Part shown: positions 3,099 to 49,366 of the stretch, piece by piece
How positions within the stretch are numbered: position 1 is the first letter of the stretch
Layout of the letters: each line of letters starts with the position of its first letter
Source of the DNA: Candidatus Micrarchaeia archaeon
Lineage (GTDB): Archaea; Micrarchaeota; Micrarchaeia; Burarchaeales; Fermentimicrarchaeaceae
Assembly: GCA_038871515.1 (NCBI GenBank)
Contig: JAVZHX010000001.1
Coordinates: forward strand, 248,212-312,211
Direction: 5' to 3'
Length of the DNA stretch: 64,000 bases
Position numbers and translations under genes: made by a program
The notes under the pieces: model-generated
The model's input: only the letters and a program-made list of their open reading frames with translations
Databases searched by the model: none
What the model was told of the DNA's origin: nothing

Positions 3099-3109
3099 TC
3101 GCGACGTTC

Positions 3110-6745: not shown

Positions 6746-6800
6746 GTCACTAGATTTATTTGCTGCCCTTATAAACTTATCGCCAAGTTCGATAGGACTA
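5875..6800 (-). mobile_element. 23S rRNA intron (domain II region) with LAGLIDADG ORF; boundaries approximate
   Basis: Flanked by 23S sequences GGTAGAGCACTGATCAGG...GGTTAAGGCCCCTAAAT below and GGTGACCTGCGTGTAGGGG above. Confidence 0.55.
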
Positions 6801-7551
6801 TCACCCCTACACGCAGGTCACCCGAGCGGATATACCAGCACCGGTTGCGGGCCTCCACCAATCTGAGGATTGGCTTCGCCCTGCCCGCGTGTAGATCACA
6901 TTGGCTTCGGGTCTGATGAAAGTGATTTATGGCACTTTCGTACCACCTGCCTCGCCCTTTCGGGTTGCGCAGTCTCGCTTTCGCTCCGCCTTTCGGCTCA
7001 CCACTTCCATCAACTCCTTGGCTCTTGCTTCAAGAAGAACGATGCAACCCTGCTCAATCTCCCGTCGCTCTACATATTTCTACATATCGCTTCCAGGAGA
7101 CCGCATTCCTTTCGGGCCGCACCTTCTGTAGCCACTCAGTTTCAGGCTCTTTTAACTCCCCTTTCGGGGTGCTTTTCAGCGTTCGCTCGCGCTACTTGTG
7201 CGCTATCGGTCTCAGGTTATATTTAGAGTTGGAAGTTGATGCTCCCATGTTCGCGCCCAATACTCAATGGACGCTACTCCGCGCATCCCCTCCCCTCCTG
7301 TTTTTCGCTTACGAGGCTTTCACTCTCTTTGGCAGCGCTTTCCAGCGCACTTCAGCTAGACAGAAGGAGAATGGAATGCATCACATCTCCCACAAGTTGC
7401 CCTGAGGGATTCGAATTGCCTCTGTGTGGCTTTCAGTCGCCCTTACTCACCACATCCCATTTGGTTTCTTTTCCTGCGGGTACTAAGATGTTTCAATTCC
7501 CCGCGTGCTCCTTCACCTCTTTTGGAGGTGAATGATTCGGCAATCCCAGGT

Positions 7552-8469: not shown

Positions 8470-8500
8470 TATCCAATTTTGGATCCACCGTAATTTAAAG
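7570..8500 (-). mobile_element. 23S rRNA intron near the 5-prime end (about position 110-150) with LAGLIDADG ORF; boundaries approximate
   Basis: Exon TTGAACCTGGGATTGCCGAAT...GGGAATTGAAACATCTTAGTACCCGCAGGAAAAGAAA resumes below about 7556; upstream exon GCTGCGATAAGCCCAGGG at about 8520. Confidence 0.55.
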
Positions 8501-8709
8501 GTTTCATTTCCAATACTCTTCGCAGCAGAACCCTGGGCTTATCGCAGCTTGCCACGGCCTTCCTCGCTACCTGAGCCAAGCCATCCCCTGAGCGGCATGA
8601 CTCACTGCACTCGTTGATGCCAGGAACTGTAGCTTCTTCTCCTCTCACGGCTTCATGAACATCAGCCACTTCATTCAGAAAAACTTTCTGAATTGCATAC
8701 ATGTGCGGA

Positions 8710-8801
8710 TGGACTCGGCGAGATGTTCAGCAGTTTATCTGCTTTTGAACTCGCGGCCTCCTCCTCGCAAAGGAGGCGCTCTACCGCTGAGCTACGAGCC
8801 C
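8710..8801 (-). tRNA. tRNA-Ala(TGC) in the 16S-23S spacer, with an about 20-nt insertion in or next to the T-loop (possible non-canonical intron)
   Basis: Acceptor GGGCTCG/CGAGTCC with G3:U70, D-arm GCTC AGCGGTA GAGC, anticodon arm CCTCC TTTGCGA GGAGG; T-stem GCGAG/CTCGC encloses 27 nt (TTCAAAAGCAGATAAACTGCTGAACAT) instead of 7. Confidence 0.75.
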
Positions 8802-8947
8802 ATAAGAGGCTTCAAGAACATTAAGAGTGAGCTTTCGCCTTACGCTCGCCTTGCACTCACTTCCTCGTTCTCATTTCATAGAACGATTTAAGGAGGTGAT
8901 CTATCCGCAGGTTCCCCTACGGATACCTTGTTACGACTTAGCCCCTC

Positions 8948-9601
8948 TCATGAAGAATTAGCTCGACGAGACCCTTTCGAATCTCGCCTCACTAAAACCT
9001 CACTTGAGTGACTTGACGGGCGGTGTGTGCAAGGAGCGGGGACGTATTCATTGAGCTGAAGAGACACCAAACTTTTAGTTGGGACTGTCATGAAAAACTT
9101 TCTTACCTCTTGTCTACCATTTATATCCAGGCAGACACGTTTCCCACTCGTGAAAGTGGTCACTCGAATGCCGACACTTCGCAACAAAGTTGCGAGAAAA
9201 TCTCTTATTTCCCTAGAAACAACAGCGAACCTGATTCTTGGATATGGTGGTTTGCGCCTCTGGTCTTTCTCAAGCCAACCCTCACTATCAAACCAACCGG
9301 CTGCATAGGCGAGTTGCTCTTCCAGAGAACCACGCCGAATTGCTTGAGGCACAGAAAGTAAATATGACTTTCTTCCGCGAGGAATTTCATACTTCATAGT
9401 GAGCATATTAACTATGTTTATGGACACTAATCTCACTCGGCAGTTCCTCACATCTTCATGGGCTCCATCACTGCGGAACATTAATGCCACCTTTCTACGA
9501 AAGGATGGATTGAAAATACGAATATCAACCCGATTCCTCCTAGTTTCGATATGACCGTCTCCACTCACAAGACCCGCGAGATAAGCTTCTCTGGTACTCA
9601 A
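8948..9601 (-). CDS. LAGLIDADG homing endonuclease (double-motif); the last 35 codons of the ORF track are read-through into the 16S 3-prime exon
   Basis: Motifs LAGLVSGDGHI and LAYAAGWFDSEGWL; tail NEYVPAPCTHRPS... is a translation of conserved 16S exon sequence. Confidence 0.75.
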   Translation of the reverse strand: MSTREAYLAGLVSGDGHIETRRNRVDIRIFNPSFRRKVALMFRSDGAHEDVRNCRVRLVSINIVNMLTMKYEIPRGRKSYLLSVPQAIRRGSLEEQLAYAAGWFDSEGWLEKDQRRKPPYPRIRFAVVSREIRDFLATLLRSVGIRVTTFTSGKRVCLDINGRQEVRKFFMTVPTKSLVSLQLNEYVPAPCTHRPSSHSSEVLVRRDSKGSRRANSS

Positions 9602-9681
9602 ATAATCACCTCTGGTGTCTCCTCATCCGCTCGAGTTCACTCAGAATAGTTCAACTAGTGGACTATTCCGATTGGTGACAA
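9053..9681 (-). mobile_element. 16S rRNA intron (between AGTAATCGC and TGAATACGTCCC) with LAGLIDADG ORF; boundaries approximate
   Basis: 16S consensus AGTAATCGC ends at 9682 and TGAATACGTCCCCGCTCCTTGCACACACCGCCCGTCA resumes at 9052. Confidence 0.55.
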
Positions 9682-9837
9682 GCGATTACTAGGGATTCCA
9701 GCTTCATGAGGGCGAGTTTCAGCCCTCAATCCGAACCTGGGCCGAGTTTGGGGATTAGCTCCTCCTCTCGGAGTGGCAACCCATTGTCTCGACCATTGTA
9801 TGCCACGTGTAGCCCGGGAGATTCAGGGCATACTGAC

Positions 9838-10662
9838 TTCGGCTGAACAATTGGCGTAAGATTAGAAAATATTCTTGAGTTCATGTACTTTCGTACAGAT
9901 ATAATCGTAAGGTCCTTTCAACTCCTCATAATCGCTATGTTGAAGCGGTAGTTCTGTTTCGATAACTGCGATTAATTTAATCTTATTATTTAAGAATTTT
10001 GTTTTATATCCTTGATACGCCAGCTCTCTGATTCTTTCCGTTTGTTTTCTCCTGTTGATGGTGTGCAAACGTTTGCATTGAATACCGATATTAAATTTTT
10101 TTATGTATATATCGACAATTGATTTATTATTTATTGGATAATTTATCTTACATTCTATCCCTTTGTTTTTCAGAAAATCGGCTACTTCTTTTTCCTGAGT
10201 GCTAAATCTTTTTGCTAAGGATCTCTGCGCTCCTAGCTGCCTTGCTTTAGAAGCTTTCTCTGAAAGAGCATTTGCTTTGAACCATCCCTTGGATTCTTGT
10301 TCGGATTTTTTGAAATTATCTCTTATCCTATTTTCAGATATTCGTATGTTTCCGAGTTTTGCTAAGAAATTCTCTGCAGTTCTGATTTGCATTTTCTTTA
10401 CCTTTCCGGATTCGTATTTGTGCACATTCTTGCTGATGCCTAAAAATTTTTCAAATTGTGGTTGCGACATGCTTAGATTTAGTCTTAGTAAAAGAATATA
10501 CCTGGGGTTGTTGGAAAGAGTTTCCGCACTTATTTTTGTGTAATTCTTAGAATCACGTCTGAAATTCGCAATTAAATTTTCTAGTCCATATTTTGTTGTT
10601 GAAATTGCTGGCATAGTTATATTACGGAGCAAGGATATTTTAATCTTACGGACCAATTGTTC
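9838..10662 (-). mobile_element. 16S rRNA intron (between GGGCGACGGTAG and GTCAGTATGCCC), 825 nt, with non-LAGLIDADG ORF
   Basis: Exon ends map precisely to 16S consensus; intron termini are reverse-complementary (TGAACAATTGG / CCAATTGTTCA) as expected for a bulge-helix-bulge splice motif. Confidence 0.7.
9862..10617 (-). CDS. Intron-encoded protein: XRE-like HTH plus putative PD-(D/E)xK (DUF559/Vsr-like) nuclease; putative homing endonuclease
   Basis: HTH-like LSMSQPQFEKFLGISKNVHKYESG; C-terminal VADFLKNKGIECKINYPINNKSIVDIYIKKFNIGIQCK parallels ORF 3466-4374; ORF-track start at 10710 lies in the exon, first in-intron Met at 10617. Confidence 0.45.
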   Translation of the reverse strand, partial: TMPAISTTKYGLENLIANFRRDSKNYTKISAETLSNNPRYILLLRLNLSMSQPQFEKFLGISKNVHKYESGKVKKMQIRTAENFLAKLGNIRISENRIRDNFKKSEQESKGWFKANALSEKASKARQLGAQRSLAKRFSTQEKEVADFLKNKGIECKINYPINNKSIVDIYIKKFNIGIQCKRLHTINRRKQTERIRELAYQGYKTKFLNNKIKLIAVIETELPLQHSDYEELKGPYDYICTKVHELKNIF

Positions 10663-10747
10663 ATCTACCGTCGCCCTCTCCTTCCTCCTACTTAACGTAG
10701 GCAGTCCCAACAGAGTGCTTCATCTCCGGAGAGATGAATCGCAACTG

Positions 10748-11275
10748 TCAGCAAGGGTCTCGCTCGTTTCCGGACCGCATGAGTGCTTTTTGGGAGTGCT
10801 TGAGAAATTTTTTAACAAATGCAAAAAACTCTTTTGGAGTAAGAATTGCAAGCTTTCCTTCTATGAACCTTGCTCTGAACCCCAAAAGCTCCAGAAGCAT
10901 CTGCTCCTTTTCTGATGCTCTTGCGAGGTAAGGAGTATTTCCTTTTACTCCGCCGCAGGAGTCAAACAAACCTGCTAGGTATGAAGCAGAGTAGTCGTTC
11001 TTCTTCCTGAAAACATCAAGCTGATTTCTCTCAGCTTCCTCAAAGAATTTTCTGTATGCTGAATGGTAAAAGTAAATTTCATTTTCATTCAGCTGAATTT
11101 TCTGAGGAGGAATTTTGAGAGTTTTCAGCGCTTCTTTCAGGAAAATCTCGCGTATCTCTCCGCTTCCTCTTATTCCAACTCCTCTGGAAGCTTTCCTTCC
11201 TTTCCATAAACCAATCACATACGCCAGTTCAGGCGTCATTTTTATTTTCATCTCTCTCACTCCGGATGCACCCAT
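10748..11275 (-). CDS. LAGLIDADG homing endonuclease (small, double-motif)
   Basis: Motifs LAYVIGLWKG and YLAGLFDSCGGV; ORF reads about 20 nt into the downstream exon. Confidence 0.75.
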   Translation of the reverse strand: MGASGVREMKIKMTPELAYVIGLWKGRKASRGVGIRGSGEIREIFLKEALKTLKIPPQKIQLNENEIYFYHSAYRKFFEEAERNQLDVFRKKNDYSASYLAGLFDSCGGVKGNTPYLARASEKEQMLLELLGFRARFIEGKLAILTPKEFFAFVKKFLKHSQKALMRSGNERDPC

Positions 11276-11283
11276 GCGGTTTA
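10769..11283 (-). mobile_element. 16S rRNA intron (between GTTAAGTCCGGTAAAC and GAGCGAGACCC), about 515 nt, LAGLIDADG ORF
   Basis: Exon consensus on both sides; repeated CCGGTAAAC / CCGGAAAC at the junctions. Confidence 0.65.
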
Positions 11284-11326
11284 CCGGACTTAACCGGACA
11301 CTTCACAGCACGAGCTGACGATGGCC

Positions 11327-11432
11327 TTGTGCGAGAACGTCGCTTCTCCTTATAATCATAAATTGACGAGTGTCTGAGGACATTCAGAACAATATTCTTT
11401 ATATTTGTGTCTAATTAAGAGCGGCGTTCTCT
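11327..11432 (-). mobile_element. 16S mini-intron, about 106 nt, ORF-less (between GGTGGTGCAT and GGCCATCGTCAGCTCGTG)
   Basis: Insertion inside universally conserved GGTGGTGCATGGCCGTCGTCAGCTCGTG; AT-rich. Confidence 0.6.
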
Positions 11433-11535
11433 ATGCACCACCTCTCGGCTCGTCAGGCAAGATCTTCAGTCTGGCCTTCATACTGCCGTCGCTCCCGGTG
11501 ATATTCCCGGCGTTGAATCCAATTGAACCGCAGCT

Positions 11536-11608
11536 TGTGGAACTCCAACCCCTCGTTTACACTAACCGACATATACGCGTCGGAATTGGGTCAAGGGTTT
11601 GGAATTAA
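11536..11608 (-). mobile_element. 16S mini-intron, about 73 nt (between GGGGTGGA and AGCTGCGGTTCAATTGG)
   Basis: Interrupts conserved GGGGTGGAGCCTGCGGTTTAATTGGA. Confidence 0.55.
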
Positions 11609-11622
11609 TCCACCCCTTGTGG

Positions 11623-11651
11623 TATGGGAAACAATAAGAATACTTATTGTT
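11623..11651 (-). mobile_element. 16S mini-intron, about 29 nt (between GGGGGAGCA and CCACAAGGGG)
   Basis: Interrupts conserved GGCGGGGGAGCACCACAAGGGGTGGA; palindromic AACAATAAGTATTCTTATTGTT. Confidence 0.55.
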
Positions 11652-11667
11652 TGCTCCCCCGCCAATT

Positions 11668-11698
11668 CAGGAAGAACTAGCAATTGCTAATTCTTTTT
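11668..11698 (-). mobile_element. 16S mini-intron, about 31 nt (between AAAGG and AATTGGCGGGGG)
   Basis: Interrupts conserved AAACTTAAAGGAATTGGCGGGGGAGCAC; near-palindrome AAGAATTAGCAATTGCTAGTTCTT; only a 16-nt exon (11652-11667) separates it from the previous intron. Confidence 0.55.
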
Positions 11699-11724
11699 CC
11701 TTTAAGTTTCAACCTTGCGGCCGT

Positions 11725-11765
11725 AATTGGGGAAGCCCGCGCCGATAAATTTCGGTTAGGCTTCT
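11725..11765 (-). mobile_element. 16S mini-intron, about 41 nt (between CTGGGGAG and ACGGCCGCAAGG)
   Basis: Interrupts conserved GCCGCCTGGGGAGTACGGCCGCAAGG. Confidence 0.5.
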
Positions 11766-11792
11766 CTCCCCAGGCGGCAGACTTAACACCTA

Positions 11793-11833
11793 CGCTACGG
11801 CACTGCCGTAACCCTAAGTTACGGCAACACCAC
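11793..11833 (-). mobile_element. 16S mini-intron, about 41 nt (between GCAGACT and TAGGTGTT)
   Basis: Interrupts conserved GATGCGGACTAGGTGTTGGG; internal hairpin TGCCGTAAC...GTTACGGCA. Confidence 0.5.
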
Positions 11834-11866
11834 AGTCTGCATAATTTACTGCTAGGGCTACTCGGG

Positions 11867-11897
11867 TGTTTAGTAACTCGAGAAGGTGCTCGAATCA
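11867..11897 (-). mobile_element. 16S mini-intron, about 31 nt (between GGATTAGATA and CCCGAGTAGCC)
   Basis: Interrupts the universally conserved 790-loop sequence GGATTAGATACCCGGGTAGTCC; internal hairpin TCGAG...CTCGA. Confidence 0.55.
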
Positions 11898-12873
11898 TAT
11901 CTAATCCGATTCGTTCTCCTAGCCTTCGTCCCTCACTGTCGGACGCGTTTTGGCCAAGCGCCTTCGCCACTGGGAGTCCTCACAGGATTAACGGATTTTA
12001 CCCCTACCCCGTGAGTACTCTTGGCCTCCCCCGCTCCCAAGCCCGCCAGTATTCTCTGCACTCCTTCGAGTTGAGCCCGAAGATTTCACAGAGAACTTAG
12101 CAGGCCAGCTACGGACTCTTTAGGCCCAATATACGTGGATACCACTCGAGCTGCCGGTGTTACCGCGGCGGCTGTCACCGGTCTTACCCAGCTCTTATTC
12201 CACAAGCTCCTTAAGCTTGTGAAAAGATGCTCGCGTGGAGCATCACTCAGAATCCCCTCGTCACGCTTGCGCGCATTGCGAAGGTTTCGCGCCTGCTGCA
12301 TCCCGTAGGACTGGAGCCCTTGTCTCAGTGCTCCTCTGGGGGCGCCAACTCCCATTGCCCCCACCGATTATCGGCTTGGTGGGCCGTTACCCCACCAACT
12401 ACCTAATCGGAAGCAGTCTCATCCTAAGGCGGAAATGGCTGCATTTCGCCATTCCTTTTGGGCTATGAAGCGTTCCAGCATCCATAGCCTATGTGGTATT
12501 AGCCTCAGTTTCCCGAGGTTATCCCCCTCCTTAGGGTAGATTGACTACTCGCTACTCAGCCGTACGCCACCCCTCCTAGCAGAAGGGGTAGACTTGCATG
12601 GCTTAGTCGGATTCTGATAGCAGTACCCTCCAGCAGGATCAACTGGAGTTTTTCACGTTTAGAGCACACTTCCGCAAGTTCGGCGTAAGCACCACTAATC
12701 GCTCACTTCTCCTGTTCTTGAAGCCTCAGTCAAACCCAAACCTGCTTGGATTTCCATCAGATTGTGTGCTATAGAGGAAAGGTATCTATCACAGCACGAA
12801 ATGAGAATTCGCGCTCCATTTACGCCGGAGTCTATAGCGTCCGCACGGCGAATAAAGATTATACACACTCTTA

Positions 12874-39478: not shown

Positions 39479-40195
39479 TTTATAATAATCGCAGAGTTTA
39501 TTCAGCACACATAAGTTACATTCTGGATTCCTTGCTCTGCATATCTTTCTTCCGTGAAGTATGAAGTTTATGTGAAGGGTTTTCTTCTCATCAGAAGGGA
39601 TAAGTTCATTCATAATTTTATGGGCTTTCTCAGAGCTTGCTTCTTCTGGTATCAACCCCAACCTCTTGGCAATTCGCATATTATGTGTGTCCAGAGGCAT
39701 TGTTGGCTTGTTGAAGCAGAAAAGCAGAAGCACGCTTGCGGTTTTTGGCCCAATTCCGTCAATTGAGCGAAGGAATTCAAATGCATCATCAGCAGACATT
39801 TTACTTAGAAAATCCAGGCTCAGCTTCCCTCTTCTCCTCCTTATCTCGCTAAGCGCCTTTTTTATTCTACGCGCTTTTATTTTTGACAAACCACCTGGGC
39901 GAATTGCTTTCTGAATTTTTCCTAAATCTGCATCAAGAACAAGCTCCCATTTTGGAAACTTCCGTTTGAGACTGAAAAAAGCAGCTTGGGAGTTCCTGTC
40001 GCTTGTATTCTGAGATAAAATTGTTCCAACTAAAACGTCAAGGGGGTTGCTCCTTTCGTCTATGGAGTGAACCCCGTACTCCCGCTTCAAAATTTCTATA
40101 ACTTCTTTCAGCTTTTTCACGCATTTATTTAAAGCACGAAATAATAAATGACTACATGAAAGGAATTTGTTCAATTTGTGGAAGGGAAACCGCAA
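39470..40195 (-). CDS. nth: Endonuclease III (HhH-GPD DNA glycosylase with [4Fe-4S] cluster loop)
   Basis: LVGTILSQNTSD HhH-GPD region and C-terminal CxxxxxxCxxCxxxxxC (CRARNPECNLCVLNKLC). Confidence 0.8.
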   Translation of the reverse strand: MRFPFHKLNKFLSCSHLLFRALNKCVKKLKEVIEILKREYGVHSIDERSNPLDVLVGTILSQNTSDRNSQAAFFSLKRKFPKWELVLDADLGKIQKAIRPGGLSKIKARRIKKALSEIRRRRGKLSLDFLSKMSADDAFEFLRSIDGIGPKTASVLLLFCFNKPTMPLDTHNMRIAKRLGLIPEEASSEKAHKIMNELIPSDEKKTLHINFILHGRKICRARNPECNLCVLNKLCDYYKSG

Positions 40196-40295
40196 GCTTT
40201 ACGTGCAGTTTATGTGGTGCGCTTGTTGGGGTGAACTGCTACGACCCTGTGGGAAAGGTTTGCATACGCTGCAAGGCAGGAAGGATGATTAGATG
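40157..40295 (+). CDS. Small Zn-ribbon protein (45 aa; CSICGRE...CSLCGA...CIRCK)
   Basis: Cys pairs; overlaps start of the downstream primase-polymerase-like gene; not in ORF track. Confidence 0.35.
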
Positions 40296-41198
40296 AGCTT
40301 AGCTGAGCTTGCGAAGAATAAAGATGTAGTGAAACCATTTGGAGAAGTTGACGTTCTGCTTTACTATGGAATTGTGGGAAGCAAGCTTGTTGGTTTTTTG
40401 AAGGGAAAGGAGCTTGCAGCGAAAAACTGGTTCCCTCCAAAAGGTGGTTTGCCAACAGTTCTTAAAAGAGGTTCAAAGGAGGAGCCGCTTTACATAGATG
40501 AATTTGTTGATGCGATAACACCTGGGTTTCTCTCATTGAGAGGGAAGCACCTTGAGGAAGTTAGAGATAAACTCGCTCCTTCCCAGCAGAAAGTGTGGCG
40601 CTACTTTGTCCCAAGGAAGCTCTCTGATTTGTTTTATGCGACAAACAATGAGGGGGAAGGTAAATCTATCGACAGAATTTTCTTTGATTTGGATAGGGGG
40701 GAGGGAGTTACTTCTGAATATGCACAGCAGGTAGCAAGGGAGTTCCTTGCTGTTATGGAGGATGATTTGAGGGAGTTGAACTGCGAAAAAAGATTTGTGA
40801 TGTGGACTGGGAGCTCCTTTCATGTTTATCTATTTCTCAAGAAGAGAATGCCTCCCTCCTTTTACGAGGAAAACTTTCAGGTCAGCACAAAAGGTGGACT
40901 TCAAACAGCAGCGCAGAAGTGGGTTGATGAGTTGAAGAAAAAAGGGTTGAAGGTGAGCGGGAGCCATGAAAAAATTGCGGGAGTTGTTGCAATAGACCCA
41001 TCTCAAACTCCCTCAGGGAAATTGGCAAGAGCTCCCTTCTCGCTGCACATGCAGGATTATAAAACAATCAATGGGGTTGCAATTCCGCTTGATTTGAACA
41101 TGCTTGATGATAAGAAATTGGTAGAGGAGCTGAAGCAGTATACGCCAAACAGAGTCGTTGAGGAGCTGAACTCTCTTTCAAAAAGACTGCCATTGTGA
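40293..41198 (+). CDS. Archaeo-eukaryotic primase (AEP) superfamily protein resembling the LigD polymerase/primase domain (NHEJ PolDom-like)
   Basis: Motif I FFDLDRGE, motif II WTGSSFHVYLFL, motif III region VAIDPSQTPSGKLARAPFSLH (compare LigD aPYSlR). Confidence 0.6.
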   Translation: MSLAELAKNKDVVKPFGEVDVLLYYGIVGSKLVGFLKGKELAAKNWFPPKGGLPTVLKRGSKEEPLYIDEFVDAITPGFLSLRGKHLEEVRDKLAPSQQKVWRYFVPRKLSDLFYATNNEGEGKSIDRIFFDLDRGEGVTSEYAQQVAREFLAVMEDDLRELNCEKRFVMWTGSSFHVYLFLKKRMPPSFYEENFQVSTKGGLQTAAQKWVDELKKKGLKVSGSHEKIAGVVAIDPSQTPSGKLARAPFSLHMQDYKTINGVAIPLDLNMLDDKKLVEELKQYTPNRVVEELNSLSKRLPL

Positions 41199-41202
41199 TT
41201 TT

Positions 41203-41634
41203 ATGAAGTTTGAAAAACTAGTTAGGGGAAGGGTTGTTTTCATTGGAGTTGGAAACGAGCTGAGGGGTGATGATGGAGTTGGTGTTTACATTGCAAGAAA
41301 ACTGAGAAAGAAGAATGTAATTAATGCGGGAGTTGCACCTGAGAATTTTATTGGAAAAATAAAGAGGATGCAACCTGAAAGAATAGTAATTTTTGATGCG
41401 CTTGATTTTGGAGGGAAACCTGGAGAAGTGAGGGTGGTTGATGCAAGGAAAACTGAGGGAATAAAAATTTCAACTCACTCCCTACCCCTTTCATTTTTCT
41501 GCAAGCTTTTTGATGGAGTTGAAGTTTATTTGGTTGGGATACAGCCAAAAGAAAGGGAGTTTGGTGCTTCACTCAGCAAGGAAGTTGTGAGAAGCGCAGA
41601 CAGGTTAATTGCTGAGCTAGCGGTGTCTTCTTAG
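41203..41634 (+). CDS. [NiFe]-hydrogenase maturation endopeptidase (HycI/HybD family)
   Basis: GVGNELRGDDGVGVYIA signature and downstream STHSLPL. Confidence 0.85.
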   Translation: MKFEKLVRGRVVFIGVGNELRGDDGVGVYIARKLRKKNVINAGVAPENFIGKIKRMQPERIVIFDALDFGGKPGEVRVVDARKTEGIKISTHSLPLSFFCKLFDGVEVYLVGIQPKEREFGASLSKEVVRSADRLIAELAVSS

Positions 41635-42882
41635 GAGAGCTTCGTCTACGTAGTAGAGCGCTACGCCTGCTAACAGAGCAACTGCAGTAATCAACCACGT
41701 TTCCAGAAGAAGATAATATGCAAGCGCTGCAAAAGTTATAATACCAAGCAAAGGTGGTATTGGGTAAAATGGAATTTTGAATGGTGGTTTCACTCTCCTG
41801 TTCACCACAATTGCAGCATAGTTCACAAGTATATGGCTCAGTATCATAAGCACAGTTGCAAGGGAAGCAATTTCCTTTAAATCGCCAATAAAGGCAAGAA
41901 AAGCCATTGGTATTCCTGTGAGAAGTATTGAAACATACGGGGTGCCAAAAGTTGGGTGTATGTGGCTGATGAACCTTGCAGTTTGGTGGTTCCTTGACAT
42001 TGAGAAAATTATTCTTGAAACTGATAGGATAAGGGTGTGGAGAACTGTGGCAGTTGCGAAGATTGCTGCAAGCGAAACTAACCACGCAGCCATCTCATTT
42101 CCAGTCGCCTCCATCACATCCGCAAGCGGAGAGCCTGATTTTGCAAGCACATTGTAATCAACAACTCCAACTGCTGTGAAGCTAACGAGCAGATACAACA
42201 AAGCGGATATTGCTAGGGAGAGCAGTATTGCAAGAGGAAGGGTTCTCTGTGGGTTAATGATTTCCTCTGAGATTGTTGTGACATTGCAGTAGCCAAGGTA
42301 GGCGAACATCATAAGCGCAGCTCCACCTATCAAACCATTCAAACCATTTGGAAGCACATTCTGAAAATTCGCTGGTTTTATATGAGGTGCACCAAGCAAC
42401 ACAAAAAGAAGCAGCATGAGAATTTTAAGAATTACAAGCGCATCATTCACAATCTTTGACTGCTTTGCTCCCACAAGGTTAACCAAAGTGAAAAGAATGC
42501 ATGCTCCAACAGCAAGCAGGTTTGCTGGGAAAACCATAAGCACTGCAAGGTAATCCGCCAAACCAAGGCTGACTGCCGCACCTCCTACAATGCTGCCGAG
42601 TATGAGCATCCATCCTGTCAAAAAACCCCAGAAAGGAGAAACAACTTTAAAAACATACTCATACCCTCCCCCTTCTTTTGGTATAACTGAGGAAAGCTCC
42701 GCAAAGCTCAGAGCAGTGAAAAGAGAAACAACTCCCGCAAGAATCACTGAATAAATAACACCTGGGCCAGCCATCCCTGCAGCTATCCCAACAACTACAA
42801 AGATACCTGCTCCGATTATTGCTCCTAAACCTATAGAGATAGCGTCAAATAGGTTAAGTGCTCTTTTCAACCTGGTTGCCAT
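41617..42882 (-). CDS. Amino acid permease (APC superfamily transporter)
   Basis: 12-TM pattern with N-terminal FDAISIGLGAIIGAGIF motif. Confidence 0.85.
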   Translation of the reverse strand: MATRLKRALNLFDAISIGLGAIIGAGIFVVVGIAAGMAGPGVIYSVILAGVVSLFTALSFAELSSVIPKEGGGYEYVFKVVSPFWGFLTGWMLILGSIVGGAAVSLGLADYLAVLMVFPANLLAVGACILFTLVNLVGAKQSKIVNDALVILKILMLLLFVLLGAPHIKPANFQNVLPNGLNGLIGGAALMMFAYLGYCNVTTISEEIINPQRTLPLAILLSLAISALLYLLVSFTAVGVVDYNVLAKSGSPLADVMEATGNEMAAWLVSLAAIFATATVLHTLILSVSRIIFSMSRNHQTARFISHIHPTFGTPYVSILLTGIPMAFLAFIGDLKEIASLATVLMILSHILVNYAAIVVNRRVKPPFKIPFYPIPPLLGIITFAALAYYLLLETWLITAVALLAGVALYYVDEALLRRHR

Positions 42883-42970
42883 ATTGTTTGGTATTGCTCA
42901 CGCCTATATAAAATAGTTGGTTTGAATTTTTTTAGCAAGGAATTTAAAGAAAGCAAACCATAATTTTAGC

Positions 42971-43840
42971 ATGACGTACAGAATAGCAAAACCAGGTGAA
43001 ATAATTGTTGAAGCGCAGGAGAGGTATCCTGGCTCTTTTTACGATAAAGTTTCAAGCAGCAAGTACATGGATGAGTTCTATAAGAAAGCAGTTGAAGCAT
43101 CTGGTGTTGTGAAGCTGATTGAGAGCAGAGAGGATACGGTAAGGGTTGTTGATGTGGCCGGTGGAAGAGGCAGAGTTGGGGAGATGATAAGGAAGATGAC
43201 GGATAAGAATTTTGAATACATTGTAGTTGACATAAGCAGAAAGGAGATGGGAGATGATAAGGATAAAGTGAAAATTGTTGGCGACATGGCGCACATTCCC
43301 CTGAAGAATTCAAGTGCAGATGTTGTATTTTTCCTCAACATGCCAGTTCCAATTTCACTTATTAAAAGAAAGGCTGAGACGATGACTCCTGGAAGCTTGG
43401 TTGAGGTTGAGGAACTTTGGAGCATAAAAATGTATCTTGGCAATTCAATAGATGCAGCTTTCAGAAGCAATATGCTTGAGGGGCTTAGGGTGCTCAAGCC
43501 AGATGGAGTTCTTGTAACCGGTGCGAAGCATGTTGGGCAGTCCAAAGAAGTGGCAGAAGAGGCGTTTAGGGAGTTTCCGCTTAGGGTTGAGAAACAGGAG
43601 GTTGTTGAGCTTGACAGCAAAGTTATACCGCTGTGGAGAAAGTACGGTTTGGGGTTGGAGGATCCAAAGTTTGTTATCACGACTTACAGGAGAGTTGAAG
43701 GGAATGTTGAGAGCCTTATTGAGCATGAAAAAGAGAGATTGGAAAGGAATTTGGGAAAAGCGATGGAGATGGAGACTTTTTGGAAAGTTATGGAGGAGTT
43801 CAGGAAGGAGAAGTGGGTGCCGGAGGAATTTTCTGAATGA
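42971..43840 (+). CDS. Class I SAM-dependent methyltransferase-like protein, uncharacterised family (paralog A of tandem triplet)
   Basis: VVDVAGGRGRVG (motif I-like), acidic VVDISRKE, DVVFFLNMP; conserved C-terminal VIPLWRKYG. Confidence 0.55.
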   Translation: MTYRIAKPGEIIVEAQERYPGSFYDKVSSSKYMDEFYKKAVEASGVVKLIESREDTVRVVDVAGGRGRVGEMIRKMTDKNFEYIVVDISRKEMGDDKDKVKIVGDMAHIPLKNSSADVVFFLNMPVPISLIKRKAETMTPGSLVEVEELWSIKMYLGNSIDAAFRSNMLEGLRVLKPDGVLVTGAKHVGQSKEVAEEAFREFPLRVEKQEVVELDSKVIPLWRKYGLGLEDPKFVITTYRRVEGNVESLIEHEKERLERNLGKAMEMETFWKVMEEFRKEKWVPEEFSE

Positions 43841-43873
43841 AGCAATTAAATATGTTGGATGCGTAATTAAAGT

Positions 43874-44722
43874 ATGATTCATAAGATATCTAAACCGGAA
43901 GACATCCTTCTTGAAGCTCAGAAGCTCTACCCAACAAAGTTTCACGAAGTTTCCGAGAGCACTTACATGGATGAGGTTTACAGAAAAGCCGCTGCTCTTT
44001 CTGGAATTAAGGAGTATGTTGGAAAAACAAAGAGGGAAGTGAACGTTGCTGATATTGCTGGCGGGAGCGGAAGGCAGGGACATATAATCAGAAGCATGCT
44101 GAAAGATGAAGCGCGGAGAGTGACGATACATAATATAGATATAAGCAAGGAGGAGCTGAGCAAAAGAAAAGTGGATGAGAGAATTGTTGGCGAGATTATG
44201 CATCTCCCATTTGTGGATAGAAGTATGGATTTTGTTTTTATGAATAACATACCAATTCCAATTTCGCATGTGAGGAATTACGTTGCTTTTATGAAGGATG
44301 AGAGCGGAAGAAAAGGCATGATGCTGGAGATGCTTGAGCTTGCTGTTGACTCTGTTTATAAATTGAACACGCTTGAAGGTGCTAGGGTGCTTAAGGATAA
44401 TGGAGTTATGGTTGTCAGTGGTAAGTACACTGGACAGAGCAGCGAAAGCATTCAGAAAGGACTTGGCGAGCTTCCCCTAAAAGTTGAGAAATTTGAGGTT
44501 GTGGAGCTTGAGGAAGGAGTAATTCCTCTTTGGAGGAAGTATGGTATAGAGATAGAGAAGCCAACTTTTATGGTTGCCTCCTTTAGAAAAACATCTTCGG
44601 ATTTAAAGGAGCATTTTGAGCTGTATGAGCAGATGCTTTACACAAGCTTGGAGCAGTTGATGAGAATTGAGGGGTTTGAGGATGTTTTGAAAGAGATGCA
44701 CAGAAAAAATTTGAAATGGTAA
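43874..44722 (+). CDS. Class I SAM-dependent methyltransferase-like protein (paralog B)
   Basis: VADIAGGSGRQG, IHNIDISKEE, DFVFMNNIP, VIPLWRKYG. Confidence 0.55.
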   Translation: MIHKISKPEDILLEAQKLYPTKFHEVSESTYMDEVYRKAAALSGIKEYVGKTKREVNVADIAGGSGRQGHIIRSMLKDEARRVTIHNIDISKEELSKRKVDERIVGEIMHLPFVDRSMDFVFMNNIPIPISHVRNYVAFMKDESGRKGMMLEMLELAVDSVYKLNTLEGARVLKDNGVMVVSGKYTGQSSESIQKGLGELPLKVEKFEVVELEEGVIPLWRKYGIEIEKPTFMVASFRKTSSDLKEHFELYEQMLYTSLEQLMRIEGFEDVLKEMHRKNLKW

Positions 44723-44753
44723 AGTAATAAATCCGAAACTTCATAATTTATGC

Positions 44754-45664
44754 ATGGTGGAGAAGTTTGCAGAAGAAGAGAATCTTTTAAGAAAAGTGCA
44801 AATTCTCTATCCCGACTCCTTTTACGATAAAGTTTCAAGCAGCAAATTGATGGGCAAGTTCTATGAAAAAGCAATTGAGCTTTCGGGAGTTGTTGGGCTT
44901 ATTGAAAAGAGCACGCCAGGAAAAGTGAGCGTGGTTGACATATGTGGGGCAGAGGGATTGTTGGCGATAGAATAAAAAGTATGACGAATAAGGAGTTCAA
45001 CTATATAGTTGTTGATATAAGCAGAAGGGAGCTTGGAAGCGAGCAGTGGAAGAATAGAGTGATGGGAGATATGCTGCACATTCCTCTTAAAAATGAAACT
45101 GCGGATGTTGTGTTCTGTCTCAATATGCCGGTTCCACTTGCGCAGGTGAAGGAGCATGCAAAAGTGACGAAAGCAGATAATTTGAGTGAGGAGTGGGATA
45201 GGGAGAAAGTGATGAATATTTTGAATGACGCAGTGGATAACATATGTGAGCTGAACCTTCTTAACGCAGCAAGAATTCTCAAAAACAACGGTGTGCTTGT
45301 GCTCGGAAACTCATTTGCTGGGCAGACTGAGGAGGATGCAAGAAGACAGGTGAAAGAAATTCCAATGAAGCTTGAAAGATATGCGAGAGTGAAGCTGAGC
45401 AACCGAGTTATACCACTTTGGAAGGAATATGGAAGTGAGGTGAGTTCACCTGTTTTTGTGCTTGTGTGTTTCAGAAAAGTTGAAGGGAGTGTTGAGGAGA
45501 GCATTAAATTCAGGGAAGCTGCGCTCAGAGATGATTTTCAAGAGCTTGAGAGAAGCGAATTCTTCAAAAAAATTATAAAAGAAATGGAGAGGGGAGCTTC
45601 GGCGAAGAAAGGGGAAACGTTTGCAATTGATAAGAGTTTGTTTGAAAGTATAAAATGGGAGTAG
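44754..45664 (+). pseudogene. Paralog C of the methyltransferase-like triplet, reading frame broken by a 1-nt loss in a G-run at about 44949-44955 (pseudogene or homopolymer sequencing error)
   Basis: Frame 1 gives ...VVDICGAEGLLAIE*, while +2 frame continues GRGIVGDRIKSMT... matching paralog A GGRGRVGEMIRKMT. Confidence 0.5.
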
Positions 45665-45665
45665 T

Positions 45666-47858
45666 TTATTTTATGAGTTTTTCAAGAATCTCCTTTGCTG
45701 CTTTTTTATTCAAATTCCTGTTATTATTCCCGCACTGCGGATCCAGAATGCAGGAGGGGCAACCACTTCTGCACTTGCACTTCATCAATCTTTCATACGC
45801 CATCTTTTCAACTCTCTCAAACTTTTCAAAAATTATTTTTGACAATCCAGCTCCGTGAGGAGTTGAATCGTAAACATACATCCTCCCAGCAGGATAGCTC
45901 ACCCCTCCCAACTCAGATGGATCTGCTCCAGTTAAAGCAGGCATCATCGCAATTGAAACATGCTCAACTGCATGCAACCCAGATGGAAAATCATCTACGG
46001 AAAAAACAATTTTCTCAGGAAAATCAAACCAAACTGCAAGAGTGTCAAACTCATAATGCAACGGCTCATCAAGCGGAATTCTGCTGCTTATCCTCTCTTT
46101 CAAATAATCCTTCACAACATAACCGTAAACCTCATCTGAAATGTGAACTCTACCGTATGAAAGCTCCCCTCCCAAACACTCCCTTTCTCCAAGCAACTCA
46201 GTCACTTCGGCTTCTCTGTTGCGCAGAGCAACTGTATACTCAGATGTTTCATAACTGAGCTTTCTCACAAATGCAATTTTTCTCACCAAATCCAGCTTCT
46301 CAGAAACAAACTTCTCCCCTCCATGTAAGTAGATTGCACCGGGGAATAGCTCGCTGTACGCCATCGCCTCCTCCCTTTCACCTATGAACTTCTCTCTCTC
46401 CACATCATATATCCTTATTGACGAGCCAGCCGTCCTTATGCTCATCTCCCTCACAACCCTCAGCCCTCTCCTTGTAGGAATCCAGCAACCTGCAAACTCC
46501 TTGCACAGCTCCTCAGCTTTCAGCTGAGAGAAAAGCTTCTCCCCCATTGGAAATGAGTTGATTTCGTCAATGCTTGCTGGGTAATCCCGCATCATTGAGA
46601 GAAGGTGGGGTTTTAGTATAAACTCATTCTGGGGGTTTACGTAACAGCTCTCCGGCTCCCCTTTCAAATACTCATGTGGATTTTCAAAATAATACTGGTC
46701 AAGCGGGTTGTCTCGAGCGATGAAAACAGCTGTTGCCTCCCTTCCCCTCCTTCCTGCCCTTCCAATTCTCTGCCTCACCCTTGTAACCGTTCCTGGGAAG
46801 CCAGCAAGAATTACTAAGTCAACGGCACCTATATCCATCCCAAGCTCCAAAGCAGATGTTGCGACAAGCGCATCCGTACTGCCTGACTTGAACTCCTGCT
46901 CCAACTTCCTTCTCTCCTCCCTCTCCAATCCAGCCCGGTATATTTTTATTTCATGTAAATTCGTTTCCTTTGCAACTATCCCAATTCTCTCAACAACAGA
47001 GTGGCTGTTCCCAAATATCAGCAGCTTCCTTCCTTTTCCAATAAGCTGCCTTGCAACTTTCAAGGCAAGCGTTGTATAGCTCTCCCTCCCCTCCTCTGTT
47101 AAAGGAGGGTTCAGCAGTATGTGCTTAACCGTGCTTCTTGGAGCATAGCGCGCATCCACCAAAGAGAAAGGCACCCCTGCAAGCTGCTCGGCAAACTCCA
47201 ATGCATTCCCAACAGTTGCTGAACAGCAGATGAACTGCAGTTTATTTTTGGAGTATTTCAAGTGAACTCTCTTCAACCTTTTTATTATATTTGAGGAGTG
47301 GCTTCCAAACGTTCCCGTGTATGTATGTATTTCATCAATTACAACAAACTTCAAGTAAGAAAGAAACTTTTTGAACAGATGCGAGTTAAGGAGAATGAAG
47401 TGAAGCATATCCATATTTGTTATCAAAATATGCGGTGGCTCCTTCCTTATTCTTTCCCTAATATGCGCAGATGTATCACCATCATAAACCTCGCTTTTCA
47501 CACCAAGCAGAGCAAACTCCCTAAATCTTGCTAGCTGATCCCGCGAAAGCGCTTTTGTTGGGTAGATAACAATGCTCCTCTCTCCTTTCAACGCGGACTC
47601 AATAACTGGAATCATATATATTTCAGTTTTGCCAGAGGCAGTTGGAGCAGTTACAACAACATTCTCCCCTTCTCTCACTTTTTTGATTCCGTCTGCCTGA
47701 TGCTTGTAAAACTTCTCAATTCCTCTCCCATGCAGAATATGCATTATTTCCTCTGAAACTTCAACCTCCCCGAACTTCGCAGAATCTCCTTTCTCCAGAA
47801 ACTCCTTTACTTCCCCTTCTATAAGCACGAATATATTTCGTAAGAAAGCAATAAACAA
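45666..47858 (-). CDS. DEXH-box helicase with C-terminal DUF1998 (MZB) zinc-binding domain, YprA/MrfA-like
   Basis: Walker A APTASGKT, DEIH box, helicase-C, C-terminal four-Cys cluster CKCRSGCPSC...C. Confidence 0.75.
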   Translation of the reverse strand: MFIAFLRNIFVLIEGEVKEFLEKGDSAKFGEVEVSEEIMHILHGRGIEKFYKHQADGIKKVREGENVVVTAPTASGKTEIYMIPVIESALKGERSIVIYPTKALSRDQLARFREFALLGVKSEVYDGDTSAHIRERIRKEPPHILITNMDMLHFILLNSHLFKKFLSYLKFVVIDEIHTYTGTFGSHSSNIIKRLKRVHLKYSKNKLQFICCSATVGNALEFAEQLAGVPFSLVDARYAPRSTVKHILLNPPLTEEGRESYTTLALKVARQLIGKGRKLLIFGNSHSVVERIGIVAKETNLHEIKIYRAGLEREERRKLEQEFKSGSTDALVATSALELGMDIGAVDLVILAGFPGTVTRVRQRIGRAGRRGREATAVFIARDNPLDQYYFENPHEYLKGEPESCYVNPQNEFILKPHLLSMMRDYPASIDEINSFPMGEKLFSQLKAEELCKEFAGCWIPTRRGLRVVREMSIRTAGSSIRIYDVEREKFIGEREEAMAYSELFPGAIYLHGGEKFVSEKLDLVRKIAFVRKLSYETSEYTVALRNREAEVTELLGERECLGGELSYGRVHISDEVYGYVVKDYLKERISSRIPLDEPLHYEFDTLAVWFDFPEKIVFSVDDFPSGLHAVEHVSIAMMPALTGADPSELGGVSYPAGRMYVYDSTPHGAGLSKIIFEKFERVEKMAYERLMKCKCRSGCPSCILDPQCGNNNRNLNKKAAKEILEKLIK

Positions 47859-47878
47859 GCTTCGGTTATACGGAGTTA

Positions 47879-48142
47879 TTACAAACCAGCAAAATCCTTT
47901 GAGGTTTTTCCCTTTGGAAAAACAGTTCCATTTTTTGCTGAAATTGGAAGCTGATACTCCTCAGCTAACCTGATAAGCTCACTCATATCTATGAATTTAT
48001 CAATAGAAAGCACTGGGTATGCTCCAACAGGGGAGGGAATTCTCTTAACCACAAACTCCTGAAACTGCAAAGTGCCAGAGCGCATCACCTTTATATCCAC
48101 TTTTCCTTTTTTCAACGCATCCCTTGCAATTTTCGGCAACAT
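47879..48142 (-). CDS. Hypothetical small protein (87 aa), likely co-transcribed with the aminotransferase and helicase
   Basis: Adjacent stop/start with 48143 gene; 20-nt gap to the helicase. Confidence 0.3.
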   Translation of the reverse strand: MLPKIARDALKKGKVDIKVMRSGTLQFQEFVVKRIPSPVGAYPVLSIDKFIDMSELIRLAEEYQLPISAKNGTVFPKGKTSKDFAGL

Positions 48143-49366
48143 TTAACCCCTCATCAAATTCTCAATTCCCTGAGCAACTTTCTCCAAAACTTCAATTGGT
48201 GGAAGCACCGTTGTCCTCAGGTGGCCATCCAAACCAAAACCGCTCCCTCTTGTCACCCACACATGCTCCCTTCTGAGCAACTCTGTGCAAAACTCCTTAT
48301 CGTTTTTGAATTTTGTTTTTGAAAAATCAACTCTCGGAAACAAGTAGAAAGCTCCTTTTGCTTTCTGACAGCTCACCCCATCAATTTCATTCAACCTCTT
48401 CTGCATAAACTCGGCTCTCTCCTTTATGTTTTTCACCATATACTTCAGAAACTTCTTATGTGCTTTCACATTGCTCAGCGCTTCAACAGCTGCAACCTGT
48501 GCAGGTGTGCTCGCGCATAACCTCATCGTTGCAAGGTTGTTAATTCCTTCCCTTAACTTTTTTGAACCCTCATCCTCCTCAGGTATAATCACCCACCCAA
48601 TTCTCACGCCAGTGCAACCCCAGTTCTTTGACAAACCGTTCATTATCACATGCGGCACTCCCTTTGCAACCTCCCCAATGCACGTCATCCTCTCCTTCAC
48701 AAGTATCATCTCATCATATATTTCATCTGAAATAATAAGCAAATCATTGTTTTTCGCAACCTCAACAACATCCTCCAAATTCTTTCTGCTGCACATTGAA
48801 CCTGTTGGGTTGTTTGGGTTGATTATTAAAATAAACTTCAAGTCAACTCCCTCTGCTTTTGCTTTCCTCACCTTCTCCTCCAAATCCTCCTTTGAAGGAG
48901 CCCACCCGCTCTCTTCATTTAAGCTGCTCAGCACAACTGCTCCGCCAAATAGCCTAATCATAGGTGCATAAACTGGGTAGTATGGGTTGAAAAGAACTGC
49001 CCCCTTCCCATGTTCAATGAGGGATTCCGCAAGAAATGCAACCGCCTCACTCAAACCCTGGGTGACAGATATTTTTGATGAATCAAAATCAAGGTTATAC
49101 AATCTTTTATACCTCTTTGCAATCTCTTCAAGAAGCTCAAAAATTCCAGGTGAACGTGAGTAGTAAACCTTTCCTTCCTTCAATGCTTTGCAGTATGCTT
49201 TCATTATATACTTCGCAACTCCCAAGTAAGGAACAGGGTCTCCTATGCTCGCGTTATAAATTTCCGCCCCTGTTTTCTTTATCTCCTCAGCAATTGGAAA
49301 AAGCTCCCTTATTGGGTAGTGAGCATACTCCATTCTTCCAGCAAGCGTGCTGTTTGAAAATGACAT
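48143..49366 (-). CDS. PLP-dependent aminotransferase class I/II (aspartate/alanine aminotransferase-like)
   Basis: GLSKNWGCTGVRIGWVI (PLP-Lys region SK...G.R.G). Confidence 0.85.
   Translation of the reverse strand: MSFSNSTLAGRMEYAHYPIRELFPIAEEIKKTGAEIYNASIGDPVPYLGVAKYIMKAYCKALKEGKVYYSRSPGIFELLEEIAKRYKRLYNLDFDSSKISVTQGLSEAVAFLAESLIEHGKGAVLFNPYYPVYAPMIRLFGGAVVLSSLNEESGWAPSKEDLEEKVRKAKAEGVDLKFILIINPNNPTGSMCSRKNLEDVVEVAKNNDLLIISDEIYDEMILVKERMTCIGEVAKGVPHVIMNGLSKNWGCTGVRIGWVIIPEEDEGSKKLREGINNLATMRLCASTPAQVAAVEALSNVKAHKKFLKYMVKNIKERAEFMQKRLNEIDGVSCQKAKGAFYLFPRVDFSKTKFKNDKEFCTELLRREHVWVTRGSGFGLDGHLRTTVLPPIEVLEKVAQGIENLMRG

Follow-up and report, generated by a model that had tools for sequence, protein, structure and literature searches.

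Locus and gene layout

Three paralogous genes lie head to tail at one locus in the genome of a tiny DPANN archaeon (Micrarchaeia), and they raise the question of what kind of enzyme they encode, whether they are old or recent copies, and whether the third, whose reading frame is broken, has been lost. In the reading that we consider likely, they are paralogues of ancient divergence within a rare class I SAM-dependent methyltransferase subfamily that appears restricted to Micrarchaeota, and the third, C, has been freshly inactivated. ORF calling in the window (the whole 64-kb stretch of DNA analysed here) and alignment with related loci gave the following features:

41617–42882, minus strand: amino-acid permease (APC family), left flank, divergent (Pfam AA_permease_2, 6e-51)
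42971–43840, plus strand: paralogue A, A-type predicted class I SAM-dependent methyltransferase, ORF of 289 aa
43037–43062, plus strand: 26-nt stretch in A encoding FYDKVSSS(K), within the conserved N-terminal lid motif
43874–44722, plus strand: paralogue B, ORF of 282 aa, the type kept most widely
44754–45664, plus strand: paralogue C as a whole, two overlapping ORFs split by the frameshift
44754–44975, plus strand: 5' fragment of C, ORF of 73 aa, family HMM positions 1–68
44820–44845, plus strand: identical 26-nt stretch in C
44942–45664, plus strand: 3' part of C in the -1 frame, ORF of 240 aa, family HMM positions 65–285
44946–44949, plus strand: site of the frameshift, GGGG within motif I (glycine-rich, SAM-binding; alignment of the window, L009 and L005)
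45666–47858, minus strand: DEAD/MZB helicase, right flank, convergent (Pfam DEAD, Helicase_C, MZB)

The spacers measure 33 nt between A and B and 31 nt between B and C. The ORFs and the pairwise amino-acid identities (A-B 38%, A-C 42%, B-C 36%) bear out the first-pass annotation of a tandem triplet from one methyltransferase family that has no characterised member.

Family assignment and architecture

A, B and C are predicted from their sequences to be class I SAM-dependent methyltransferases, which would bind SAM and transfer methyl groups. The Pfam model Methyltransf_11 (PF08241; cut-off 21.2 bits) is matched by A with 25.9, by B with 27.0 and by the 3' fragment of C with 21.6 bits, as it is by 14 of the 20 family members, and NCBI annotates A and B as class I SAM-dependent methyltransferases. 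The earlier statement that the family matches no known methyltransferase is therefore true of the subfamily, which is uncharacterised, but not of the methyltransferase class. AF2 models (pLDDT 86 and 89) show the fold of a class I methyltransferase, Rossmann-like alpha/beta with a seven-stranded sheet.

The conserved elements named at first pass, a GxGxG region, an acidic strand and a VIPLWRKYG block, proved invariant or nearly so across the 20 members. The first corresponds to D61-x-x-G64-G65-x-G67, with G65 and G67 invariant, and the acidic end of the strand to D87; D61 and D87 are each present in at least 90% of members, and V218, L221, W222, Y225 and G226 of the V-I-P-L-W-R-K-Y-G block are invariant or almost so. 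A and B have an intact motif I and an intact acidic residue of strand 2, as does C once its frame is repaired, and the G-D/E adenine-contact position is present in all three.

With Methyltransf_11 and class I enzymes in general the family shares the Rossmann-type seven-stranded core, the GxGxG of motif I, the acidic end of strand 2, a 'G-D-x-x-x-[IL]-P' before strand 4 and an 'R-V-L-K-x-x-G' before strand 5, with the Pfam match confined to residues ~60–125. The family adds several elements of its own to this core. Its N-terminal region is conserved and made of four helices (Y-P-x-x-F-H-E-K-V-S-S-S...), strand 4 is followed by a long inserted helix, the hairpin of strands 6 and 7 carries a short one (V-I-P-L-W-R-K-Y-G), and two further helices lie at the C-terminus. 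Neither Pfam nor NCBIfam has a model for the conserved first 55 residues, for the 30 residues of the helix that follows strand 4, for the VIPLWRKYG element or for the C-terminal pair of helices.

The family falls outside the better-defined groups that were compared. For UbiE/COQ5, PF01209 gave 15.6 bits against a threshold of 20.1 and TIGR01934 (MenG/UbiE) 19.5 against 158, and the NCBIfam search returned only UbiE, BioC and PRK05785, all far below threshold. The amino-methyltransferase motif IV, (D/N/S)-P-P-(Y/F/W) after strand 4, is absent; the family has N123-[MIT]-P-[VI]-P in its place, with the Asn in at least 90% of members, Pro-Pro-aromatic in none and NPPS in P0020 only. Among the PADLOC defence models, A matched only mad2 (5e-6), through a generic methyltransferase domain and without a defence context. 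Foldseek against the PDB likewise gave only generic class I matches (TM 0.35–0.50).

The thiol S-methyltransferases TmtA and GtmA and the enzymes OxaG and RoqN (PDB 5egp, 5jgj, 5w7k, 5w7m) are UbiE/COQ5-like enzymes of fungal natural-product pathways, with an identity to the family of just 16–18% at sequence E-values of 0.01–0.1. They belong to fungi and to other pathways, whereas the archaeal genes have no biosynthetic cluster around them. Hvo_0019 of Haloferax volcanii (Trm112-associated, PDB 6f5z) and PH0226 (1ve3) are shorter, at ~230 aa, and lack the family-specific insertions. Histamine N-methyltransferase (1jqd/1jqe) has an equal length (292 aa) and two weak collinear matches, one of them placing 'kLWkkYG' against VIPLWRKYG; a relationship was rejected, as neither significant sequence similarity nor preferential structural similarity was found.

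Paralogue types and distribution

As judged by sequence comparison, A, B and C represent ancient, diverged paralogue types rather than recent copies. Neighbour-joining recovered an A clade (bootstrap 61%), a B clade (98–100%) and a C clade (100%), with the relations among the clades not resolved; C as a recent duplicate of A was rejected, since C forms its own deep clade. The family HMM found one, two or three copies per locus across related loci. B stands alone at the slot between permease and helicase in distant relatives, A and B occur together in Ca. Fermentimicrarchaeum and others, and the full triplet that the first-pass annotation had wanted traced in relatives occurs here and in one sister species, which has an intact C. 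B is thus the constant resident of a variable permease/helicase slot, and A and C are confined to sub-lineages.

The permease is the conserved left border of this slot (it also adjoins it in L003, L005, L011, L014–17, L019, L021 and L023), and the helicase, which adjoins related loci too, is its conserved right border. Because these genomes share their gene order over more than 15 kb, a neighbouring permease or glyoxalase gene is weak evidence of function.

The family is rare: searches of 5.8 G proteins yielded 8 and 17 clusters, a search of 1.84 G gave 24 representatives at E <= 1e-10, and in 185,579 GTDB species representatives, scanned with two peptide patterns, two loci were confirmed. A profile word search using the 20-sequence alignment added almost no further members, and in the literature on Fermentimicrarchaeum and on SAM-dependent methyltransferases of Micrarchaeota nothing was found about this family. 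The four types A, B, C and D provide an orthology framework for a rare, uncharacterised DPANN methyltransferase subfamily. The practical value of this is modest, and the case is an ordinary one of gene-family evolution with no pointer to a new mechanism.

Possible substrates

From the fold neighbours, the isoelectric points and a glyoxalase/VOC neighbour, we infer that A, B and C act on small molecules rather than on nucleic acids. TmtA, OxaG and Coq5, all of them small-molecule methyltransferases, come out best among the structural and sequence neighbours, albeit as generic fold neighbours (~170 of 289 residues aligned at 14–22% identity), with tRNA, rRNA and protein methyltransferases just 2–3 Z units below them. 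In loci with B only, a glyoxalase/VOC gene adjoins B.

That the target is instead a macromolecule (rRNA, tRNA or protein) appears doubtful, though it is the alternative to which we give most weight. Against it stand the pI, which for most members of types A, B and C is 5.4–6.5 and differs from that of typical nucleic-acid-binding methyltransferases, and the Pfam search, in which no RNA-binding domain (THUMP, PUA, S4 and similar) appeared; the top two fold matches of both models are small-molecule enzymes, and a copy number of one to three, with some copies inactivated in some species, is unusual for core modification enzymes.

Within the preferred small-molecule reading, the paralogues would have diverged in acceptor specificity. 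A more far-reaching and, in our estimate, improbable proposal is that they form Micrarchaeota-specific small-molecule methyltransferases with a new substrate-binding architecture, built from the YPxxFHEKVSSS lid and the VIPLWRKYG hairpin insertion, that act on related acceptors and whose copy number tracks niche or host. If so, the paralogues might, for example, methylate a metabolite or toxin, imported or host-derived, in successive steps or as alternatives, and copy number (one to three, with independent inactivations) would follow the symbionts' ecological niche or host. The substrate, if found, could inform on Micrarchaeota metabolism or host dependence.

The frameshift in paralogue C

The loss of one G that had been noted in the third copy is confirmed: the window reads TGT GGGG CAG where the intact orthologue of the sister species (L005/L018, an ORF of 301 aa) reads TGC GGGGG CAG, and the run lies at 44946–44949, slightly to the left of the interval 44949–44955 first given. 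Adding one G to the run restores an ORF of 303 aa in which motif I reads DICGGRGIVGD. The 5' fragment comprises ancestral residues 1–64, nine out-of-frame residues and a stop, and the 3' part comprises ancestral residues ~65–303 with no further stops, so that the protein is broken after strand 1 and before the glycine loop. Two 'hypothetical proteins' of the deposited MAG, QXF56_01795 (NCBI's entry for the 5' fragment) and QXF56_01800, are thereby shown to be the halves of one frameshifted gene.

We propose that a run of five G in motif I lost one G and that the resulting run of four broke the reading frame, leaving C probably as a young pseudogene whose frameshift is genuine and whose inactivation is very recent. 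Repaired C is 74% identical to intact C of L005 with a dN/dS of 0.21–0.26, the branch-specific nucleotide changes show no excess in the window copy (47 versus 49 in L005), and no second lesion was found over the remaining 240 codons. Past purifying selection together with the lack of extra damage points to a recent lesion. C has roughly double the dN/dS of A and B, so that constraint on it may have been relaxed even before the lesion.

The same observations would also fit a C gene that is whole and working in the organism, with the frameshift due to an error in sequencing or consensus or to a minority allele: the lesion affects a single base of a homopolymer, C is otherwise undamaged, the gene bears the mark of purifying selection without acceleration of its branch, and C is intact in several sister-species samples (L005, L006, L007 and L018). 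We nevertheless regard such an error, be it a systematic one at the G run, or a polymorphic population as unlikely. The identical run of four G is found in a Logan contig (L009, SRR27170999) with no mismatch over 8,849 nt; this contig possibly derives from the same reads as the MAG, and a frameshift shared at 100% identity with an independent Logan assembly is not an assembler artefact. In short-read chemistry, runs of four to five bases are no error hotspot. Moreover, in another species (L008) the A orthologue has been independently frameshifted in a G run, which shows that the family undergoes such inactivations. A metagenome scan for the exact site, in its four-G or five-G version, gave no match, and a second scan recovered only the L005-type species.

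That full-length C is made through a programmed -1 ribosomal frameshift, or through slippage during transcription of the G run, is hardly credible: a -1 slip past the GGG codon would read GGC AGA GGG and restore C-G-G-R-G-I-V-G-D exactly, but there is no X XXY YYZ heptamer, re-pairing reaches just two of three positions, no stimulatory RNA structure lies downstream (z = -0.29), four G are too few for the polymerase to slip efficiently, and the five-G orthologue needs no such device. If, as we suppose, C has been inactivated, this would reflect the dispensability of accessory copies.

The 26-nt identity between A and C

The 26-nt string shared by A and C is exact and occurs exactly twice in the 64-kb window, as first reported; the chance repetition of a 26-mer is negligible in a sequence of this length, and the match therefore reflects homology. 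The first-pass annotation had taken it as a sign of recent gene conversion, a claim that our comparisons did not support. The string would rather represent a strongly conserved motif retained in preferred codons: the peptide F[YH][ED]KVSSS is kept in all A-, C- and D-type members, the codons of the stretch are those preferred by the genome, and at 17 of the 26 nt C of the window also matches the A gene of another species (L005), which makes these positions ancestral.

A short A-to-C conversion is possible, and the case for a tract of ~10–75 nt in this lineage has several points in its favour. The run of 26 nt exceeds the longest identical run in cross-genome A×C pairs (21 nt), between which conversion is impossible, and a column-shuffle test gave p=0.0004 for A and C of the window. 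TAC GAT (Tyr-Asp) is common only to these two genes, with TAT GAG and CAC GAG in orthologues. In codons 36–60 the window copy of C is A-like at eight sites and that of L005 at none, and the A-C nucleotide identity over columns 35–65 is 72% in the window and 61% in L005.

As the origin of the 26-nt identity, such a conversion is nonetheless quite unlikely. The shuffle test also gave p=0.014 for the A-C pair of L005, at a different motif, so that it responds mainly to the clustering of motifs. In a synonymous-codon test at same-residue columns, the identical-codon run is not unusual (p=0.13), while one cross-genome pair reached p=0.02. Gene-wide quartet site patterns are 16 concerted against 12 noise, on which large-scale concerted evolution was also rejected. 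The direction of change cannot be polarised from two C sequences only, and the flanks, at just ~60–70% identity, are a poor substrate for homologous recombination. Any exchanged tract would have been a micro-tract of at most a few nucleotides. Retention of a conserved motif in preferred codons, which we favour, carries a caution, namely that it can yield a long identical run between diverged paralogues.

An apparently lineage-restricted subfamily of class I methyltransferases

Three paralogues, A, B and C, lie head to tail on the + strand, and the tandem triplet of diverged copies read from the sequence by the first-pass annotation is borne out by the ORF list, with pairwise amino acid identities of 36-42% (A-B 38%, A-C 42%, B-C 36%).

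Features of the methyltransferase locus (ORF list and sequence; tract by exact string match)
42971-43840, + strand: paralogue A, 289 aa
43874-44722, + strand: paralogue B, 282 aa
44754-45664, + strand: paralogue C, split
44754-44975, + strand: 5' ORF of C, 73 aa (ORF list)
44942-45664, + strand: 3' ORF of C, 240 aa, -1 frame, overlapping the 5' ORF (ORF list)
starts at 43037 (A) and 44820 (C), + strand: copies of the 26-nt tract

A and B are identical to two NCBI proteins named 'class I SAM-dependent methyltransferase', MEM3555428 and MEM3555429, from a MAG labelled 'Candidatus Micrarchaeia archaeon' (contig of 541,696 bp), in which each half of C is entered as a hypothetical protein in its own right (QXF56_01795 and QXF56_01800). 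Pfam Methyltransf_11 scores A, B and the C fragment above its gathering cut-off and matches 14 of 20 family members. The AlphaFold models of A and B (pLDDT 86.1 and 89.3) both contain the seven-stranded class I core, to which the family adds four helices at the N terminus and two at the C terminus, a helix of ~30 residues that follows strand 4, and a short helix (V-I-P-L-W-R-K-Y-G) within the hairpin of strands 6 and 7. By every criterion tested, A, B and C are members of the class I/Methyltransf_11 superfamily. An NCBIfam search returned nothing beyond far-sub-threshold UbiE/BioC-like matches, the family reaches neither the UbiE/COQ5 nor the HNMT thresholds and does not fit the NPPY-type motif definition, and a PDB sequence search gave only borderline matches (PH0226, E=0.0011; OxaG, RoqN and HNMT, ~0.01).

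In the 20-member alignment, the motif I residues D61, G65 and G67, D87 at the end of strand 2 and N123 directly after strand 4 are invariant or nearly so, as are P110, D117, R173-x-L175-K176, G179, W222, Y225, G226, F234 and the N-terminal F23, V27, Y37 and S44. Outside the SAM site, conservation is highest in the lid and hairpin elements. The SAM-binding motifs are retained in all three types, so none looks like a dead partner.

Among 5.8 billion proteins, a word-indexed search returned 8 clusters with A as query and 17 with B, and a full HMM scan retrieved 24 of 1.84 billion representatives at E<=1e-10. Two peptide patterns based on the family alignment, run against 185,579 GTDB species representatives, confirmed two loci, in Ca. 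Fermentimicrarchaeum limneticum Sv326 and Micrarchaeota Sv368. The family is a rare, uncharacterised subfamily that appears to be limited to a single lineage; neither tandem paralogy nor a young pseudogene is out of the ordinary.

Copy number varies at a conserved slot

Slot occupancy was determined with the family HMM over all fetched loci together with the gene tables. The borders are conserved, with an APC amino-acid permease gene (divergent) on one side and a DEAD/MZB helicase gene (convergent) on the other. B is the sole occupant in Sv368 (L011) and in the related loci L019, L021 and L023; A and B occur in Sv326 (L003), L014-L017 and L008 (Logan assembly of SRR14702244); and A, B and C occur in the window and in one sister species (L005/L006/L007/L018), which shares about 81-85% DNA identity with the window and is collinear across 16 kb. 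Where C would lie, Sv326 has an unrelated gene of 311 aa (L003 9804-10739) that gave no Pfam match. The slot is variable, and the pattern of one, two or three copies reflects gains or losses that differ among lineages. A fourth type, D (P0007/P0008), lies outside the slot, with genes for a ParE toxin and a transglutaminase as neighbours.

A neighbour-joining tree (200 bootstraps) supports separate clades for A (61%), B (98-100%) and C (100%) and does not resolve the order among them; the separate clades imply that the paralogues are ancient. A recent origin of C as a copy of A is rejected by the same tree. In L014 (1248-3004), A is 70% identical to Sv326 A and B only 52% to Sv326 B, and this B groups with that of Sv368 (99% bootstrap), which suggests that B was replaced or recombined in the L014 lineage.

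In all genomes, each copy has an A/T-rich, TATA-box-like element ~24-33 nt upstream of its ATG, of the form ATT(T/A)AA(A/T) at about -32 to -24, and a second conserved element, TAATTTA, at about -12 to -6. Both are present in the spacers at 42925-42970, 43841-43873 and 44723-44753 of the window and at equivalent positions in L003, L005 and L008, and the permease-methyltransferase spacer is conserved whether A or B is the first gene. The pair looks like an archaeal TATA box and a proximal element, which suggests one promoter per gene and mRNAs that may be leaderless or nearly so. In that case, translation of the 3' part of C would be inefficient.

Long antisense ORFs (167-274 aa) run over the methyltransferase genes on the - strand at 43078-43680, 43445-44269 and 45001-45504; they probably reflect the purine richness of the coding strand and are not genes.

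Probable inactivation of the third copy

The single-base loss in a GGGG run proposed for C is supported by the repaired frame: one G added at 44946-44949 yields a 303-aa ORF that reads D-I-C-G-G-R-G-I-V-G-D across the glycine-rich loop, and the site is TGC GGGGG CAG in an intact C orthologue versus TGT GGGG CAG in the window. Window 39874-48722 is reproduced without a single mismatch, four-G run included, by a Logan contig of run SRR27170999 (L009), assembled independently from reads that may overlap those of the MAG; the MAG assembler and polishing are thereby excluded as the source of the lesion. A sequencing error or a minority allele is an unlikely explanation that still deserves weight. 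A and B have dN/dS values of 0.08-0.10 between the window and L005, and C has 0.21-0.26, which indicates that C was under selection for most of the time since the split. Lineage-specific nucleotide changes are balanced (47 in window C, 49 in L005 C, with the A genes as reference), and the 240 codons of the 3' part hold no second stop or indel. The most likely reading is that the frameshift is genuine and inactivated an accessory copy very recently. The models place the break between strand 1 and the glycine loop, so that neither fragment alone would be expected to bind SAM.

Expression of C through recoding at the frameshift is highly improbable: no canonical slippery heptamer is present at the site, and the 90 nt 3' of it show no unusual structure (z = -0.29).

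The dS of C (window 44754-45664 against L005 8001-8906) is 0.68-0.76, versus 1.1-1.5 for the adjacent A and B. The A orthologue of L008 has independently lost a G from a GGG run (about 379-389), which splits it into 99 + 189 aa; with one G inserted it gives 288 aa, 68% identical to window A. That genome lacks C, and B is its only intact copy.

The 26-nt tract shared by A and C

The string noted in A and C is present exactly twice in the 64-kb window; the recent gene conversion that it was taken to imply does not follow from it. The tract encodes FYDKVSSSK, within F-[YH]-[ED]-K-V-S-S-S; no N-terminal motif is more conserved, and every A, C and D member has it. GTT TCA AGC AGC AA also occurs in the A genes of L005, L008 and the related locus L001, and L005 C has GTT TCG AGC AGC AAA at this position. 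Window C and L005 A share a longest exact match of 17 nt inside the same tract, and L008 A and L005 C share 21 nt at the V-D-I-S-R-K-E motif; pairs unable to exchange DNA thus reach 17-21 nt. Where A and C residues agree, the codon is the same in 48% of columns. The run of eight identical codons between window A and C has a permutation p=0.13, and a cross-genome pair has a run of ten (p=0.02). A column-shuffle test gives p=0.0004 for the 26-nt run, but at another motif the L005 pair also reaches p=0.014; the test mostly picks up clustering of conserved residues.

Micro-conversion between A and C as the origin of the tract would fit TAC GAT, common to window A and window C only, and a local cluster of eight A-like sites in window C (codons 36-60), both unpolarised and based on two C sequences. 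However, given the cross-genome matches, the silent-codon run, the strongly conserved motif and tract codons that are those preferred by the genome (TTT 64%, GAT 77%, GTT 57%, AGC 35%), we regard it as quite improbable. Concerted evolution is rejected, as quartet site patterns comprise 201 orthology-type sites and 16 'concerted' versus 12 noise-pattern sites.

Proposed function

From the class I fold, the intact cofactor motifs and the family-specific elements, we infer that these proteins are SAM-dependent methyltransferases whose acceptor site would be built by the N-terminal lid (Y19, F23, Y37), N123-x-P-x-P after strand 4 and the W222/Y225 helix. A small-molecule acceptor is more likely than a macromolecule, because the closest neighbours in fold and in sequence are small-molecule enzymes, the pI is 5.4-6.5 with no RNA-binding domain found in the family, a glyoxalase/VOC gene directly follows B in L019, L021 and L023, and copy number is variable with independent inactivations. 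Methylation of a macromolecular target is a serious rival, if a somewhat doubtful one on these grounds. After B, the slot of the B-only genomes holds one or two glyoxalase/VOC genes along with unknown ORFs (glyoxalase/VOC and other slot ORFs at L019 8057-8452; L021 8032-8484; L023 7935-8327 and 9371-9763).

An interrupted rRNA operon

Elsewhere in the window, an archaeal rRNA operon (2761-12649, - strand) is heavily interrupted: the LSU spans 4,876 nt versus a 2,987-nt model and the SSU 3,019 nt versus a 1,478-nt model, with an extra SSU 3'-end piece at 8902-9025. LAGLIDADG homing endonuclease ORFs lie in or beside the insertions (5873-6745, 7552-8469 and 8948-9601), and an ORF at 9862-10710 has a faint REase_MTES_1575 match. 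A tRNA-like Rfam match in the spacer region (8746-8801, - strand; 40 bits), not reported by ARAGORN, may be an intron-containing or truncated tRNA.
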